Source: a virus
Lineage: Duplodnaviria; Heunggongvirae; Uroviricota; Caudoviricetes
Reading direction: 5' to 3' (one strand)
Length of the DNA stretch: 32,182 bases
IMG/VR virus record: IMGVR_UViG_2870464427_000001
In this document: positions 3,490 through 9,968 of the stretch, in pieces
Position numbering within the stretch: position 1 is the first letter of the stretch
Layout: every line of letters begins with the position of its first letter
Program-made: the position numbers and the translations under genes
The notes under the pieces: model-generated
What the model saw: the letters and a program-made list of their open reading frames with translations, nothing else
Databases searched by the model: none
Told to the model about the DNA's origin: nothing

Positions 3490-3756
3490 CGGGTTATCTC
3501 CGGTTTAACCAGGGCGGGTATCGCTCGGTTTCGGGTATAACCTTAGGAAATTTTTTCCCGCCTGTAAAGCACTTTTTATATAAATCTATAATTATATAAA
3601 TAATAGTAACTGGTGTTTTTTTAGGCGAAGCATTAAACATTTTTGTTTAGCTTATTGGCAAGGTCTTGAAAAAGACATTTCAGCAATGCTATACCATTGA
3701 ACATGGTATCGGCTGAATTTTGTAATTAACACATTTTAAACAATTTGAGGTGCCAA

Positions 3757-4041
3757 ATGGCTAAACAAAAATCTGAAATTGATGCTATTCGAGCATTAAC
3801 AGAAGTAACAATTAAAGGTTTTGAGCAGGTTGCTCAGGCATTAGTTGATATGAGAGAAGCTCAGGGAAAAGTCGTACGAGCAACATATAATGGATTAACC
3901 TCCTCAGGAAAATCTCGCTATGTTGCATCGCTAGTAGAGGAAGTAGGATCACAAGCTGAAGTAAGCCGCATGTTAAATATCACACCAGGGCGCGTTAGCC
4001 AGCTTATGAAGTCCGAAAAAAACCGCAAAAATGGAAAGTAA
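3757..4041 (+). CDS. small putative DNA-binding protein (C-terminal helix-turn-helix)
   Basis: 94 aa from the ATG at 3757 (GAGG RBS 6 nt upstream); C-terminal segment GSQAEVSRMLNITPGRVSQLMK looks like an HTH. Divergent from the 3109..3489 gene across an AT-rich promoter region. Confidence 0.55.
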   Translation: MAKQKSEIDAIRALTEVTIKGFEQVAQALVDMREAQGKVVRATYNGLTSSGKSRYVASLVEEVGSQAEVSRMLNITPGRVSQLMKSEKNRKNGK

Positions 4042-4068: not shown

Positions 4069-4074
4069 ATTATG

Positions 4075-4374
4075 TTAGACATGGAACGCTACTCGCTTTC
4101 CTGTAGGAAGCTCAACATCCAGGCTTAATTTGCCTCCCATAGCTTCAACGTAACGCTTTAATGTCGCCAGCTTTAAATCATTTCCGCGCTGCTCCAGCTT
4201 TGTTACTGCTGGCTGGCTTATACCCATCGCCTCAGCAACCTGTTTTTGTGATAACTGGAGTTCTTCACGCATCATCTGCAAGCCGACCTCAAGAATCATC
4301 TCATCTGCCATTTCTTTAATTCGCGCCTGGCTTTCAGGTGAACGGCTGGCAATCACCTCATCTAATGTTCTCAT
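4075..4374 (-). CDS. higA: HigA-like antitoxin (XRE-family HTH)
   Basis: 99 aa with HTH LSQKQVAEAMGISQPAVTKLEQ; start overlaps the upstream toxin stop (TAATG at 4372-4376). Confidence 0.75.
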   Translation of the reverse strand: MRTLDEVIASRSPESQARIKEMADEMILEVGLQMMREELQLSQKQVAEAMGISQPAVTKLEQRGNDLKLATLKRYVEAMGGKLSLDVELPTGKRVAFHV

Positions 4375-4727
4375 TACTTGCTCTCCAGTGTGTTCAGATG
4401 TGCTGCAAACTCATCCTCAGCTATACGCACCAGTTTTTCATAAAACCGTTTATCGTTACTTTTGTCTCCTGCACAAAGAACGATGGCCCGGCGAATCGGA
4501 TCGAACGCATAAAAGGCTCTTATCGGACGGCCAGAAAACTGAACGCGAAGCTCTTTCATATTTTTGTACCGAGAACCTTTTACGGTATCGGCATATGGCC
4601 TGGGTAACTCAGGTCCGTAAACCTGTAGCTTTTTCAAATCAGCCAAAACCTTTTCCTGAAGAGCGTCTTCTTGCTCATTTAGCCAGTCGTCAAATCGCTG
4701 GCTAAAAAGTACCGTCCACATGCTCAA
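4374..4727 (-). CDS. higB: HigB-like toxin (RelE/ParE superfamily, Gp49-like)
   Basis: 117 aa; toxin-first gene order and translational coupling typical of HigBA; sequence (RFDDWL .. KELRVQFSGRPIRAFYAFDPIRRAIVLCAGDKSNDKRFYEKLVRIAEDEF) matches the family as recalled. Confidence 0.75.
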   Translation of the reverse strand: MSMWTVLFSQRFDDWLNEQEDALQEKVLADLKKLQVYGPELPRPYADTVKGSRYKNMKELRVQFSGRPIRAFYAFDPIRRAIVLCAGDKSNDKRFYEKLVRIAEDEFAAHLNTLESK

Positions 4728-5897: not shown

Positions 5898-5929
5898 CTG
5901 CAAGGGCGAACATATTCACAGGCAAAGCC

Positions 5930-6130
5930 TGCGTAAGTTAAATAAAGAAAGTCTTAATAAAAGAAAGTGATTTTGCATTTATTTGTTTAGTGCATCTATT
6001 ATAAAAAACCATTTGCATATACATATCAAAACTGTGGATAACTTTATTAGCCGATGCCTGTGAAGGCGATATTTTTGCTGTGTTCAGGTTTAGAGAAAAT
6101 TAATTTAGATTGTTTTTTGAACAGATATTT
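5930..6130. other. origin-like AT-rich region downstream of repA (oriR candidate)
   Basis: About 200 bp of strongly AT-rich sequence starting roughly 50 bp after the repA stop, no ORF. The position matches IncFII oriR, which lies downstream of repA1. Confidence 0.5.
6033..6041 (-). promoter_or_regulatory. DnaA box (perfect TTATCCACA on minus strand)
   Basis: Plus strand tgtggataa at 6033-6041 is the reverse complement of the consensus DnaA box TTATCCACA, inside the AT-rich region. Confidence 0.5.
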
Positions 6131-6182
6131 TATTGCGACGTAGATAATCCTCCGGTAAAACCGGATTCATCATTCAGGTGGG

Positions 6183-7031
6183 TTAATGTTGGAGTGATTT
6201 CCAGGTCTTTCTTAACCTGTTATAACGCTGCTCAACGAGGGATCGTAAATATGCAAGGTCAGCACCAGGATACATGCCATCAGCAAATTCCTGGCTAACC
6301 TCTCTAGTGATTTGATGACGAAGTTCGGCCTCTCCCTTTTCCTGAACAAGACGCGCAGCTCTCTCCGCTGCTTTCTGTTTTGCCTTTATCTCTCTGGCTG
6401 TCTTCCTCTGACGCCATACATTCTCCATCTGCTCCTGAATAACAATACGCTTATAATCAGCCTCCGTTATCGCTTTTTTAAGCCGTTCGCTATTCTTCGC
6501 ATTGAAGTAATTAAGTTTCTGGCTAACCGCACGTCTCCATGCTTGTTCAGTAATACCAACGGTTTCCAGCAGTTGATCACGAATCTCTATTTTCGCTGGC
6601 CAATACTGTTTATTCACCCGATCCCAGCGACGTTCATAATCAATAAAACCTAACGCTTTCAGTTGCGACAACGCCCTTGTACAGCGTGTTATAGACTTGT
6701 TCCCAGCTTCGGATACGGTAGACAGGCCGCAAAAATCAGCCAACGCCTCAGCACTGGCCAGAACCCGCTTAGAAATGATGTTTACATGGTGCAAAATCGC
6801 AGCAATCACAGCATTAATCGCCCGACGACGATGCTCGTTTATCCGGCGCTTCCGCTCTGACGGCTGATTAACGTAGAACGCAACCTCACACGTAAGATCA
6901 CGACCATTAATGCGCTGTAAAGCATCAGATAACACTAGCGGCAGCTTGTGCGTATGGTGCTTTGGAGGCTGGAACTCCGGCGACAAATTACAAACGTAAG
7001 CGGAACGTAGAGACGGCATTGGTCTATCCAT
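6183..7031 (-). CDS. repA: IncFII-family replication initiator RepA (RepA1-like)
   Basis: 283 aa from the ATG at 7031. Segment RRRAINAVIAAILHHVNIISKRVLASAEALADFCGLSTVSEAGNKSITRCTRALSQLKALGFIDYE aligns with R100/R1 RepA1 as recalled. The in-frame upstream extension to 7163 runs through leader stem-loops and is rejected as the start. Confidence 0.8.
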   Translation of the reverse strand: MDRPMPSLRSAYVCNLSPEFQPPKHHTHKLPLVLSDALQRINGRDLTCEVAFYVNQPSERKRRINEHRRRAINAVIAAILHHVNIISKRVLASAEALADFCGLSTVSEAGNKSITRCTRALSQLKALGFIDYERRWDRVNKQYWPAKIEIRDQLLETVGITEQAWRRAVSQKLNYFNAKNSERLKKAITEADYKRIVIQEQMENVWRQRKTAREIKAKQKAAERAARLVQEKGEAELRHQITREVSQEFADGMYPGADLAYLRSLVEQRYNRLRKTWKSLQH

Positions 7032-7046
7032 ATGTTCGCTCTTGCG

Positions 7047-7117
7047 TCCACGGAAAACCAACGTATAATGGGAGTTGTCGAGGCGCCCATGGATTGTTGT
7101 TGTTGGTTTTCCGTGGA
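7047..7117. promoter_or_regulatory. 16-bp perfect inverted repeat in the repA leader, 15 nt upstream of the repA start
   Basis: tccacggaaaaccaac (7047-7062) and gttggttttccgtgga (7102-7117) with a 39-nt spacer; could sequester the repA RBS region. Confidence 0.45.
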
Positions 7118-7158
7118 TGTCGCAAGAAGCCCGCAGATTTATCTGCGGGCTTTTTGTT
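7076..7158 (+). ncRNA. candidate CopA-like antisense RNA opposite the repA leader
   Basis: Plus-strand promoter-like -35 TTGCGT (7043-7048) and -10 TATAAT (7064-7069), then about 80 nt ending in a terminator (gcccgcaga / tctgcgggc stem 7128-7149 plus T-run 7150-7158). Size and position resemble CopA of IncFII replicons. Boundaries are inferred. Confidence 0.35.
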
Positions 7159-7344
7159 TCCATATCTGGTCAGTTTCCAACCAGACACCCACAATCATAA
7201 CCACGTTACGTGGTTTTAAGAGAACTCTACCACAACACTTTCGGTCATGCACGAAGTCTCTCACTGATCGAACGATAATCCACCAGTAAAAGGATCTAAA
7301 TTGGATCTCGTTTTGCGAGCATCATACTACTGGCCTAACTCCAG

Positions 7345-7899
7345 TCAATGATTCCCAGCCGGAAACCTGCGGTAAAGCGTGGATAAGGTAACATCGAAGA
7401 TAATCGCTATCCGCTTACGTGAAACACCATTCGCAATAAGTCTTCCGATCTGTTCCCATTGCTCTGGTGCCAGCTTTGAGCGGCGTCCTCCTATCCTGCC
7501 GTTAGCCCTTGCCACCGCCAATCCTGCACGCGTTCTTTCAAGCATATTTTCCCGCTCCATCTCTGCGACTGCACTCAGCATCGTGTAGGCAAAGCGGCCA
7601 ATTGAAGTGCTAATTTTTATCCCTTCCGTAATCGAAATAAACTCAATGTTGTTTGATAAAAAATAGTTAAGAAAATCAACAAGATGAATCAGGGAACGCC
7701 CCATTCGGTCCAGCTTCCAGACAATAACCGTATCGCCCGGCCGTAACACCTTAAGTAGCTTATCAAGTCCTGGTCGTTTTGATTTAGCACCGGATATTTT
7801 ATCTTCAAAAATCCGGTCACATCCTAAACTCCTGAGCGCCTCCAGTTGTAATTCCAAATTCTGGTCAAAAGTTGACACCCTCGCATAACCATATTGCAT
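7345..7899 (-). CDS. serine-recombinase DNA invertase (Gin/Cin/Pin/Hin family)
   Basis: 184 aa; YARVSTFDQ catalytic-serine motif, VWKLDRMGRS, GRIGGRR, C-terminal HTH; aligns closely with Mu Gin as recalled. Confidence 0.9.
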   Translation of the reverse strand: MQYGYARVSTFDQNLELQLEALRSLGCDRIFEDKISGAKSKRPGLDKLLKVLRPGDTVIVWKLDRMGRSLIHLVDFLNYFLSNNIEFISITEGIKISTSIGRFAYTMLSAVAEMERENMLERTRAGLAVARANGRIGGRRSKLAPEQWEQIGRLIANGVSRKRIAIIFDVTLSTLYRRFPAGNH

Positions 7900-7963
7900 A
7901 CTTTCTAAACCGCGATTGTTGCTAAAAGCGGGAAAAAATATCGTTCAGACGACACAGAGGCAA

Positions 7964-7989
7964 TTCGCAAAAACCTCGGTTTGCAGGAA
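7964..7989 (+). other. gix/cix-like inversion crossover site (left)
   Basis: ttcgcaaaaacctcggtttgcaggaa resembles the gix consensus TTATCCAAAACCTCGGTTTACAGGAA. A 25-bp stretch (7973-7997) is identical to the reverse complement of 10902-10926. Confidence 0.7.
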
Positions 7990-8877
7990 ACGGTAAACAA
8001 GGCTGGTAACGCCGTTCAGCGTTCCGGTGATAAAATGACCGGAGAACTGAAAATTGGCACGGTGAATGCGCTGCGAATTTTCAATGATGCCTTCGGTCTT
8101 ATTTTCCGTCGTTCAGAAGATTTTCTTCATTTCATTCCGACGGCTGAAGGACAAGGCGAAAACGGTGATATCGGCCCATTAAGGCCATTCGCTATAAATC
8201 TGAGAACAGGTGCTATATCTGTCAGCCACGGGGCCAAAATTGAAGGAGGTCTAGCTATTGGAGCTACTGATAACGCACTGGGTGAAAACTCCATTGTTCT
8301 GGGAGATAACGACACCGGATTTAGGCAAGATGGAGATGGTATTATTAGCTTCTATTCAAATGGTTCGCGCATCGGACATATTGATGAGTTAGGATTACAT
8401 ATTTATAAAGATATTGAATCTAATGGCAGCAATTTTAGATTAAAAGGTAATTACCGCCACCACATTACATTCGCCAACGAAGACGGAAGTATTCGTATGT
8501 TTTTGTGGAAAGATAAAGATGGTGATGGTGTTCATATTAATAATGGTTCAAGCGGTGGCGGTGATTTCGTTTTTAAAACAGATGGGGGATTTGCGCTGGG
8601 AAGTGGTGCGCAAGTTGCGTCTAATGGCGATATTTATGGTTCAGTGTGGGAAAACAACTGGTTAAGCACATGGCTGCATAATCATGTCGTTCGGGATATT
8701 CGTCTTGGCAGCATTGAATATAAAAACGTATGGCGCGACTCCGGCTTTGGCGATGCGTCAGGTTATGTTTTAACAGCCGCAATTAACAGCAATGCGGATG
8801 ATATTGTCGACACTGTTGCCAGAAGGCCAATTCAGAAATTGATTGGGGGAATATGGTATAACGTGGGGAGTGTTTAA
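7981..8877 (+). CDS. alternative tail-fibre C-terminal cassette (silent in this orientation; no own start)
   Basis: 298-aa ORF opening exactly at the crossover site (QETVNKAG..). Its C-terminus ([18 protein letters not shown]) parallels the active fibre C-terminus (ARPIQYCINGTWYNAGSI). Confidence 0.65.
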
Positions 8878-8878
8878 G

Positions 8879-9406
8879 ATGATGCACCTGAAAAATATTA
8901 AGGCCGGGAATCCGAAAACACCGGAACAATACCAGCTAACTAAAAAAGCGGGCGTGGTATGGCTCTTTTGTGAAGATGGCAAAAACTGGTATGAGGAACA
9001 AAAGAATTTTCAGCCAGACACCATAAAAATTGCTTACGATGAGAACAACATCATCGTTGCTGTCAGTAAAGACGTTTCAACTATTAATCCTGAAGGGCTA
9101 AGCATAGTTGAAGTTCCTGATATTACGGCAAATCGTCGCGCAGACAATAACGGAAAATGGATGTTTCTGGATGGTAAAGTAGTAAAGAGGGAATATACAG
9201 AACAGGAACTGCAACAACAGGCCGAATCACAAAAGGCCGCATTGCTTTCCGAAGCTGAATCAGTCATCCAGCCGCTGGAACGCGCTGTCAGGCTGAATAT
9301 GGCAACAGACGAGGAACGCACACGACTGGAAGCATGGGAACGCTACAGTGTTCTGGTCAGCCGTGTGGATACGGCAAATCCTGAATGGCCACAAAAGCCT
9401 GAATAA
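8879..9406 (+). CDS. tail-fibre assembly protein (alternative, U'-like)
   Basis: ATG at 8879 directly after the cassette stop (8875-8877); [14 protein letters not shown].. is paralogous to the 9435..9968 product. Confidence 0.75.
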
Positions 9407-9411
9407 AAATT

Positions 9412-9431
9412 AAGGCCCGATATCGGGCCTT
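9412..9431. terminator. perfect hairpin between the convergent tail-fibre assembly genes
   Basis: aaggcccg-atat-cgggcctt at the centre of the invertible segment. Confidence 0.45.
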
Positions 9432-9434
9432 CTC

Positions 9435-9968
9435 TCATTCTGGTTGTTCGGGAAACGTTACTGGCAGGCTGGAAGTGTCTGTAGATTCGACTTTCTGCGC
9501 AAAGAGCATCCACTCTGTTAATTTTTGTTTATTCTCGTCGGAAATGATGCCCAGCCGTAGCTGTGAGTCCCATAGCAGGGTTTTATCCCTGACAAGTTGC
9601 AACAGGCTTTGCTTTTCATTCTCTGCCTGCTGCCTCTGTTCCTCCTCGGTATAAGTTCGCTTTATCACTACGCCATCTTTGAACATCCATTTACCCGAAA
9701 TATCAGCCCGGCGATTTGCTGTAATATCAGGAACCTCAACGACGCTTGCGCCTTCTGGATTAATTGCTGAAACATCCTTTTCAATACAAATAATAACGCC
9801 GTTGTGGTCATAGACCATTTTCAACGTATCAGTCTGGAAATTCTTTTGTTCCTCATACCAGTTTTTTCCATCCTCTGAATAAAGCCATTTGATGTTAAAT
9901 TGTTTCGTTAGCTGGTACTGCTCCACTGTTTTAGGATTACCAGCGGTAATGTTTTTTAAGTGCATCAT
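9435..9968 (-). CDS. tail-fibre assembly protein (U/G-like)
   Basis: 177 aa, MMHLKNITAGNPKT..; immediately downstream of the tail-fibre gene. Confidence 0.8.
   Translation of the reverse strand: MMHLKNITAGNPKTVEQYQLTKQFNIKWLYSEDGKNWYEEQKNFQTDTLKMVYDHNGVIICIEKDVSAINPEGASVVEVPDITANRRADISGKWMFKDGVVIKRTYTEEEQRQQAENEKQSLLQLVRDKTLLWDSQLRLGIISDENKQKLTEWMLFAQKVESTDTSSLPVTFPEQPE

Follow-up and report, generated by a model that had tools for sequence, protein, structure and literature searches.

A predicted cis-antisense RNA opposite the repA leader, a probable negative regulator of copy number in a phage-plasmid of the p-p47 family

The virus record IMGVR_UViG_2870464427_000001, a stretch of 32,182 nucleotides (nt) analysed here as a whole and referred to as the window, carries on its minus strand repA, the gene of an IncFII_repA-family replication initiator. 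Results of our analysis indicate that positions 7042-7159 of the opposite strand probably encode a cis-antisense RNA of about 84 nt, which would act as a negative copy-number regulator of a p-p47-type phage-plasmid through the translation of RepA. The finding is real and ordinary in kind, namely antisense copy-number control of an IncFII-family replicon, which has already been predicted and genetically supported for the p-p47 family. Since a predicted CopA/CopT pair and copy-up mutants have been described in that family, the existence of the regulator is not new. The elements on which this reading depends are as follows:

7042-7069, plus strand: predicted promoter of the antisense RNA, with TTGCGT at 7042-7047, a 16-nt spacer and TATAAT at 7064-7069
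7076-7159, plus strand: predicted antisense RNA of about 84 nt, with the 5' tail UGUCGA, stem-loop I (7082-7121), the terminator stem-loop II (7122-7157) and a U-run
7094-7109, plus strand: 16-nt loop of stem-loop I, UUGUUGUUGUUGGUUU, a candidate kissing loop and specificity determinant
6183-7031, minus strand: repA, encoding the IncFII_repA-family replication initiator of 282 amino acids (aa) from the first start codon (AUG1) or 278 aa from the second (AUG2)

Near-identity to its named representatives makes the window a member of the p-p47 family. The region 5900-7400 is 99.8-99.9% identical to plasmids about 48 kb in size from Escherichia coli, among them that of ATCC 25922, and 99.4% identical to Yersinia phage vB_YpM_44, while positions 6990-7345 are 100% identical to CP032086.1; CP032086 is named as a p-p47 member in the 2026 preprint in which the family was newly defined as one of phage-plasmids that cluster with none of the ten known phage-plasmid types (10.64898/2026.08.19.745698). 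The features that characterize the family, i.e., a nearly identical backbone, an element of about 47-49 kb, and phage genes together with repA, were all found in the case of the window. The pSLy3 phage-plasmid group, which we had considered as the home of the window, was rejected, as pSLy3 is assigned in the literature to the SSU5 supergroup.

Genetic support for the regulator comes from the same preprint, in which high-copy mutants are reported to have been selected in p-p49, a blaTEM-1-carrying member of the p-p47 family (10.64898/2026.08.19.745698). Fourteen of the 15 mutants had either one of six G/C-to-T/A single-nucleotide polymorphisms or a 3-bp deletion, located 58-86 nt upstream of repA in a region labelled as predicted CopA/CopT; their copy number rose up to 175-fold with an unchanged level of repA transcript, and mutations of this control region cause piperacillin-tazobactam heteroresistance (10.64898/2026.08.19.745698). 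When counted from the ATG at 7031, the interval of 58-86 nt corresponds to positions 7089-7117 of the window, which are inside stem-loop I, and when counted from 7019 it corresponds to positions 7077-7105. As p-p49 belongs to the same family and the leader of CP032086 is identical to that of the window, the predicted CopA/CopT of p-p49 is most probably the same RNA.

For the comparative analysis, three sets of relatives were obtained by RepA searches: the window group (RepA 80-100% identical, plus locus L021, of which RepA is 60% identical and the leader is of the window type), the distant group (RepA 58-60% identical), and the metagenomic locus L015, the nearest outgroup (RepA 63% identical). 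The module described below recurs in 20 distinct relatives with RepA identity down to about 58%. A scan of genome contigs gave only one Buchnera locus, and the diversity of the relatives derives from viral contigs and exact-protein look-ups.

An earlier, sequence-only reading of this region placed a promoter-like pair and, about 80 nt further, an intrinsic terminator on the strand opposite repA. The TATAAT of this pair is exactly where it was described, whereas TTGCGT had been placed at 7043-7048, one base off its actual position. As the -35 hexamer, the window group has TTGCGT and the distant group TTGCAT, while TATAAT and the GGGAGTTGTCGAG that comes after it are invariant or nearly so in the 20 relatives. 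A 16-bp perfect inverted repeat, also described previously, could be read directly at 7047-7062 and 7102-7117 (TCCACGGAAAACCAAC / GTTGGTTTTCCGTGGA), and its left arm indeed ends 15 nt from the ATG at 7031-7029 of the minus strand. Throughout the 32-kb window, only five inverted repeats have arms of 14 nt or more within a span of 120 nt, and this locus accounts for two of the five. The terminator is present as well, in the form of a hairpin AAGCCCGCAGAT..ATCTGCGGGCTT at 7127-7152, followed by TTTGTTT up to position 7159; its stem lengthens to 16 bp with G.U pairs, and the GC-rich hairpin together with the T-run spans 7122-7159. The T-run adjoins the hairpin only on the plus strand, while on the minus strand the complement of the hairpin is followed by CUUCUUG, a poor U-run, and the terminator can therefore be argued to work on the plus strand.

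Folding of the plus strand, which had been proposed as a check, gave two adjacent hairpins for positions 7076-7160, with -41.1 kcal/mol (z = -6.4; none of 200 shuffled sequences was as good). The module consisting of a promoter, 5' tail, stem-loop, terminator hairpin, and T-run is common to all loci of the window and distant groups. Read in the antisense direction, it begins with TTGC[GA]T, a 16- or 18-nt spacer, the invariant TATAAT, and a conserved GG(A/T)G(T/G)TGTCGAGGC, after which come the stem-loop, the terminator hairpin, and the T-run. The RNA predicted in every relative has a 5' tail, stem-loop I, and terminator, is 76-88 nt long, and folds with -35 to -47 kcal/mol. Across the 20 relatives, the 5' tail UGUCGAGGC is conserved, the stem-loop covaries, and its loop is hypervariable. 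Covariation was counted within the window group only, as MAFFT leaves stem-loop I of the window and distant groups out of register, and the structural support across groups is from separate folds. In stem-loop I and the terminator of the window group, 99% of cells pair, compared to at most 52% in slid controls, and three pairs are changed on both sides; the distant group forms the same hairpins out of unrelated arm sequences. With a covariance model derived from the window group, exactly one copy was detected in the window, on the expected strand, and the RNAs of the distant group were matched, also on the expected strand, with 32-34 bits; the model has no match in R100 or L015. Stem-loop I contains three invariant G.U pairs, the equivalents of which in the mRNA would be C.A mismatches, and its folding energy is -12.3 kcal/mol on the plus strand vs. 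-5.3 kcal/mol for the mRNA complement. According to these folding predictions, the G.U pairs make stem-loop I stable on the plus strand only.

The leader of the repA mRNA has a structure of its own, in which three hairpins (HP1 to HP3), a ribosome-binding sequence, and two start codons can be distinguished:

7127-7152, minus strand: HP1, the mRNA-sense complement of the terminator hairpin, which folds and has one compensatory change from an A-U to a G-C pair
7041-7126, minus strand: HP2, the long leader hairpin, which folds with -36.5 kcal/mol alone
7039-7043, minus strand: Shine-Dalgarno-like sequence AAGAG, 7 nt upstream of the AUG at 7031, with its first 3 nt inside the basal helix of HP2
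7017-7031, minus strand: two in-frame start codons, AUG1 at 7031-7029 and AUG2 at 7019-7017
7017-7063, minus strand: HP3, the alternative hairpin predicted for an occupied target, in which the 3' arm of HP2 (7063-7049) pairs with 7032-7017

The minus-strand leader 7020-7165 folds with -59.6 kcal/mol (z = -9.0), and the leader folds overall have z values of -8 to -9, stronger than those of the plus strand. HP2 consists of a basal helix, CUUGCG (7126-7121) with CGCAAG (7046-7041), and of a 16-bp main stem (7117-7102 with 7062-7047). In HP1 and HP2, 97% of cells pair, as compared with at most 46% in slid controls, and four pairs are changed on both sides (three in the main stem of HP2 and one in HP1). 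The analogue of HP2 in the distant group is built from unrelated arm sequences. HP2 is formed in the mRNA only, because its arm 7047-7062 lies in the spacer of the antisense promoter. Judging from these sequence patterns, each strand appears to have been selected for its own fold, as expected of an antisense/target pair. The 39-nt loop of HP2 presents single-stranded complements of the antisense loop (AACAACAAUCC) and of the 5' tail (GGCGCCUCGACA), which in this model are plausible kissing or nucleation sites.

The strong structure of the minus strand raises the question whether the hairpins serve only the mRNA, as a terminator or attenuator after the invertase gene or as a translational operator, with no antisense transcript and a merely coincidental TATAAT. 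This would fit the very high stability of HP1 and HP2 in the mRNA sense and a plus-strand promoter that was not called by the scan. We find it highly improbable, as TATAAT and the sequence of the 5' tail are invariant down to 58-60% RepA identity despite their location in an mRNA loop, the T-run follows the hairpin on the plus strand only, the three conserved G.U pairs are C.A mismatches in the mRNA, the gene upstream differs among relatives, and the copy-up mutations described in the preprint cluster in this very interval (10.64898/2026.08.19.745698).

The loop of stem-loop I in the predicted antisense RNA is hypervariable. An alignment of nine leaders with 97% identity or more has 29 variable columns in 6890-7345, of which 12 are located within the 14 nt of 7093-7106, and the loop sequence differs in every subgroup while its flanks are constant. 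Natural loop variants include the window type, the L035 type (UUAGUUGUUGGUUU), the L033 type, and the L009 type. Such hypervariability is the pattern expected, on sequence grounds, of a specificity (incompatibility) determinant, and slippage of (TTG)4 at 7094-7105 may contribute to it. The possibility of a pseudoknot between a conserved sequence of the HP2 loop, GGCGCCUCGACAACUCC, and UUGUCGCCGGAGUU, which lies in the coding sequence of repA some 45 nt from its beginning, was rejected, as by eye the partner is not conserved in relatives.

The same loop bears on the proposal that the interval is coding and RepA is a protein of 326 aa starting from the ATG at 7163. The frame 7163-6183 is open in the window, and the 326-aa form is annotated by PGAP in several records, NZ_CP009073 among them. 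Nevertheless, all homologues have 277-284 aa, the Pfam coverage begins at residue 9 of the 282-aa form, the ATG at 7163 is absent in L009 and L021, and loop indels break the frame in nearly identical plasmids, in which PGAP places the start at the equivalent of 7019 or 7031. We consequently regard this 981-bp call as an artefact, and the chance that it is correct as extremely small.

If the interval specifies an antisense RNA, its effect on RepA synthesis could be brought about by an exchange of hairpins. In the free mRNA, HP2 would sequester the strand GUUGGUUUUCCGUGG (7062-7048). The antisense RNA, made from a promoter of constitutive type and ended by the intrinsic terminator, would kiss the loop of HP2 and then pair along its 5' arm (7126-7076). 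The released 3' arm of HP2 would refold onto 7032-7017 to form HP3, in which both AUGs are buried, and the synthesis of RepA would drop. The antisense RNA covers positions 7159-7076 of the mRNA, which include HP1, the 5' arm of the basal helix and main stem of HP2, and the greater part of the loop of HP2. As 45 nt separate its 5' end from AUG1, it cannot directly block the ribosome. The start-proximal hairpin postulated in the sequence-only reading is present: 3 nt of the Shine-Dalgarno sequence, which in relatives is AAGAG or AAGGG, are paired within the basal helix of HP2 (CGCAAG), and the opening of the AUG1 site costs about 10 kcal/mol. The layout for antisense copy-number control, of which this hairpin is a part, holds up as well, being conserved and covarying in relatives, marked by G.U pairs specific to the plus strand, and affected by copy-up mutations reported in the same plasmid family.

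If the fold is computed with a blocked target, all relatives show pairing of the released 3' arm of HP2 with the region of the start. In the distant group, this arm is CCUGGCU and its partner is the Shine-Dalgarno region, GGCCAGG; the energy needed to open the start site of the leader open reading frame (ORF) there increases from 4.5-9 to 13-21 kcal/mol. For the AUG2 site in relatives of the window group, the increase is from about 3-5.6 to 6-11 kcal/mol. For the window, the constrained fold gives HP3 with both AUGs buried, at -18.6 kcal/mol (z = -4.3; one of 500 shuffled sequences was as good). Given the mixed results for the opening energies, which are good in distant relatives and weak in the window, hairpin exchange is what we infer as the best model of the mechanism.

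The main alternative to hairpin exchange is cleavage of the duplex by RNase III. The antisense RNA might act mainly through cleavage and decay of the mRNA in a duplex of about 83 bp, or through premature termination, and not by refolding of the start site. Full complementarity over about 83 nt would provide a substrate for RNase III, as is generally known for CopA-CopT, and the weak energetic switch in the window would be easier to accommodate. On the other hand, the structure that could terminate transcription, i.e., a terminator-like alternative with a U-run after HP3, is absent, and the level of repA transcript was unchanged in the copy-up mutants, according to the preprint (10.64898/2026.08.19.745698). 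We consider a mechanism of this kind unlikely, and the control of RepA translation by the antisense RNA to be the better account.

Several points weigh against this account. The consensus scan called neither a promoter nor a terminator on the plus strand. The former was missed because the -35 hexamer TTGCGT, a weak one, matches the consensus at three of six positions, which is below the threshold of the scan, and the claim of a promoter therefore rests on conservation and not on the quality of the match; the latter was missed, as we think, because the stem extends into the T-run. The antisense RNA has been read from sequence only, and its 5' end at 7076 is assumed from the position of the -10 hexamer. 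The sample for covariation consists of few, closely related sequences. As regards the switch, opening of the AUG1 site of the window takes about 10 kcal/mol both in the free and in the blocked state, because part of the Shine-Dalgarno sequence is already paired in the basal helix of HP2, and the value for the AUG2 site changes negligibly, from 5.6 to 6.0 kcal/mol. The translation of RepA in those relatives in which AUG1 is out of frame is left unexplained by the model. Finally, the place of the mutated interval of the preprint in the window depends on the repA start that was used (7163, 7031, or 7019 in different records).

The sequence-only reading described the antisense RNA as CopA-like. 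In the functional sense this description is justified, while homology to CopA at the level of Rfam and a leader ORF of the Tap type are not supported. With R100 as a positive control (Rfam CopA, RF00042, 106.3 bits, E = 2.7e-21; copB, tap, and repA all annotated), the covariance search that had been suggested for CopA gave no CopA match at gathering level in the whole window and none at E<=10 in 6900-7450. At E<=10, the latter region yielded only generic, terminator-shaped partial matches (Thr_leader, CsrC) and no match to PK-repBA (RF01089) or PK-repZ (RF01087), neither of which appeared at gathering level. Like R1 and R100, the window has an initiator of the IncFII_repA family and, at the sequence level, a gene opposite the repA leader for a small RNA that has a promoter and an intrinsic terminator of its own; the predicted RNA resembles the two-stem-loop antisense RNA, about 85-90 nt in length, found there. 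Further likenesses are a hairpin over the ribosome-binding site of repA, a DnaA box and an AT-rich region downstream of repA, and, in the p-p47 family, the copy-up mutations in the antisense/target stem-loop reported in the preprint (10.64898/2026.08.19.745698). In contrast to CopA, of which the large 3' hairpin carries the CGCCAA loop, the RNA of the window has its large loop on the 5' hairpin, and the loop of its 3' terminator hairpin is of 4 nt. Additionally, the window has neither a conserved Tap ORF nor CopB. Functionally, the RNA would work like CopA or Inc RNA; it is a member of neither family and is absent from Rfam. The preprint names the element of p-p49 by analogy with R1 ('CopA loop II'), and the available part of its text is silent on the lack of Tap and CopB, the anatomy of HP2 and HP3, or the hypervariability of the loop.

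A strict counterpart of the R1/R100 system would require that the antisense RNA blocks a Tap-like ORF, which runs through HP2 from UUG 7125, or from a start further upstream, to the stop codon UAG 7026-7024, and the translation of which opens the hairpin and is coupled to that of repA. The window does have a 56-codon ORF at 7194-7024, with a stop codon UAG 2 nt after AUG1 (AUGGAUAG); the hairpin covers part of the Shine-Dalgarno sequence, and in R100 tap overlaps repA in a like manner. This ORF is, however, not conserved, and for this reason it was rejected: in L009 the frame from the equivalent of the UUG stops after four codons, and loop indels of 1-2 nt shift the frame among plasmids that are at least 97% identical. 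None of the candidate starts is preceded by a Shine-Dalgarno sequence, and the 5' end of the antisense RNA is 45 nt from AUG1, while that of R100 is 18 nt from the tap AUG. Control through such an ORF seems to us very unlikely.

By analogy, the design of the antisense control in the window looks closer to the I-complex/IncL-M type than to CopA. In those systems, a distal sequence near the rep start pairs with the target loop, forming an activating pseudoknot, or else closes the start site. The window shares with the I-complex, IncB, and IncL-M plasmids the Pfam family of RepA; a short antisense RNA lies opposite the rep leader in the absence of a CopB-type repressor, a sequence by the rep start can pair either with the region targeted by the antisense RNA or with the start site, and in the distant relatives the stop codon of the leader ORF overlaps the rep start (AUGA). 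In the case of the window, the distal strand, at a distance of 15 nt from AUG1, is paired with the target loop and its 5' stem in the form of a 16+6-bp hairpin, HP2, which takes the place of the short loop-distal pseudoknot; its activating role and its competition with the antisense RNA are inferred. HP2 can thus be read, by analogy, as an enlarged version of the activating contact between the target loop and the distal sequence. The window further differs from these systems in that the hexanucleotide UUGGCG / CGCCAA is missing (its loop UUGUUGUUGUUGGUUU shares only UUGG, while CGCCAA is present in the antisense loops of L015 and R100), its leader ORF is reduced to the four codons from AUG1 to AUG2, in frame and with no separate peptide, and its antisense RNA has a separate terminator hairpin besides the interaction hairpin.

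The leader of L015 (2363-2489) matches Rfam PK-repBA with 49.3 bits vs. a gathering threshold of 45, and PK-repZ and CopA weakly; the lineage is therefore placed next to the I-complex/IncL-M type. Read by eye, L015 has a 15-codon leader ORF that overlaps the GUG of repA (GUGA overlap), and its antisense -10 hexamer (GGAUUAUA in the mRNA sense) is at the corresponding place. Judging from these sequence features, L015 links the lineage to the classical families. The loop of its antisense hairpin, CCGCCAAGUUGAGAAGAUGAU, closely resembles the CopA loop of R100, UCGCCAAAGUUGAAGAAGAU.

Taken further, and only tentatively, as we hold it to be rather less probable than its converse, the module may be a distinct, uncatalogued branch of IncFII-family antisense control in which the pseudoknot has been replaced by a full hairpin exchange. 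Its kissing loop would evolve fast, in part by (TTG)n slippage, and create new incompatibility types among nearly identical phage-plasmids, and the coupled leader ORF of the sister lineages would be a diverged copy of the RepA N-terminus.

The last of these proposals concerns the region between the control module and repA. RepA of the window matches Pfam PF02387 (E = 6e-44, 151 bits, profile positions 2-272 of 275), and its homologues have 277-284 aa. In the RepA alignment, AUG2 corresponds to the conserved N-terminus. AUG1 is in frame with repA in the window and L021 and out of frame in L009 and L030 (offset 17) and in L010, L024, and L025 (offset 13). The annotated repA start varies among records (NZ_CP009073, NZ_CP139394, NZ_CP035864, and others), where it is placed at a position equivalent to 7163 (gene of 981 bp), 7031 (849 bp), or 7019 (837 bp). 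In the distant group, the position aligned with AUG1 (AUGGAUA) is the start of the leader ORF (AUGGAAAAC), which encodes 33-162 aa and in seven of eight loci ends on the repA start with AUGA. The leader ORF is of 158-162 aa in L016 (2028-2504), L019 (2016-2504), L013, L022, and L012, where it is located between the antisense-control module and repA, and its product, with 27% identity (E = 4e-10), is a diverged paralogue of RepA in its N-terminal, winged-helix half. In L020, L027, and L023 it is cut to 33-63 aa, with the AUGA end kept in L020 and L027. The long leader ORF may encode a truncated-RepA regulator or may merely be a coupling device. From the sequences, the window type seems to be a form whose coupled leader ORF shrank to only four codons, now fused to repA in the same frame.

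Biologically, the regulator is a variation on a textbook theme and introduces no new principle; its anatomical differences from CopA are of possible interest to plasmid specialists and are useful for annotation. As p-p47 phage-plasmids are common in clinical E. coli, it may be of use that this anatomy, by identifying the RNA, loop, hairpins, and start codon involved, tells which mutations should be copy-up and that it predicts mutually compatible loop variants. The RNA belongs to no Rfam family and is therefore missed by annotation pipelines, and the annotation of repA is corrected, as the 326-aa PGAP call reads through the RNA gene.

Two further elements of the replicon could be located on either side of the repA start and stop:

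7321-7348, minus strand: candidate repA promoter TTGACT-16-TATGAT from the consensus scan (10 of 12 matches), from which the leader would be of about 280 nt
5950-6050, strand not assigned: likely origin region, with a DnaA box in an AT-rich stretch

A TTGACT..TATCAT pair is at the same place as the candidate promoter in L009, L021, L024, and L025. The DnaA box, TTATCCACA, at 6033-6041 of the minus strand is perfect and is the only one in the 32-kb window; the region is 142 bp downstream of the repA stop codon, and the GC content of 5950-6049 is 0.23. A DnaA box with an AT-rich stretch downstream of repA presumably resembles the oriR of R1. Just downstream of the predicted start of repA transcription, three GATC sites are present in 7266-7307 (at 7266, 7293, and 7304), two of them 11 bp apart, and L009, L010, and L012 have similar GATC clusters at this same place. 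They may link the expression of repA to Dam methylation or SeqA.

The sequence-only reading noted that no copB gene was visible, and we arrived at the same result. The gene directly upstream of repA (7345-7899, minus strand) encodes a Cin/Hin-type serine invertase (Resolvase and HTH_7 domains), there is no conserved small ORF in 7164-7344, and among relatives the upstream position is occupied by a tail-fibre assembly, an acyltransferase, or an invertase gene. Next to the invertase gene of the window are genes for tail fibres and tail-fibre assembly, which are oppositely oriented (8843-9406, plus strand; 9435-9968, minus strand), and the region 7345-9968 looks like an invertible host-range (tail-fibre) segment.

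Other parts of the window contain elements known from phages and plasmids. At Rfam gathering level, the plus strand of 398-584 matches the isrK RNA (398-471, 68 bits) and the C4 antisense RNA (496-584, 70.8 bits), which form an immunity (immI) RNA pair of the P1/P7 type; this points to a P1-like antirepressor control region in the phage-plasmid. Downstream of the replicon, at about 4074-4720 (transferred from L001, 2175-2821), there is a gene of a RelE/ParE-family toxin and a gene of a helix-turn-helix antitoxin, labelled according to the annotation of the identical ATCC 25922 plasmid, and the two are likely an addiction module. A perfect 15-nt palindrome with a 1-nt spacer is located at 1012-1042 (GTTTGAAAATCTCTT/AAGAGATTTTCAAAC), and a 29-nt inverted repeat with 79% complementarity and arms 90 nt apart at 3632-3779.

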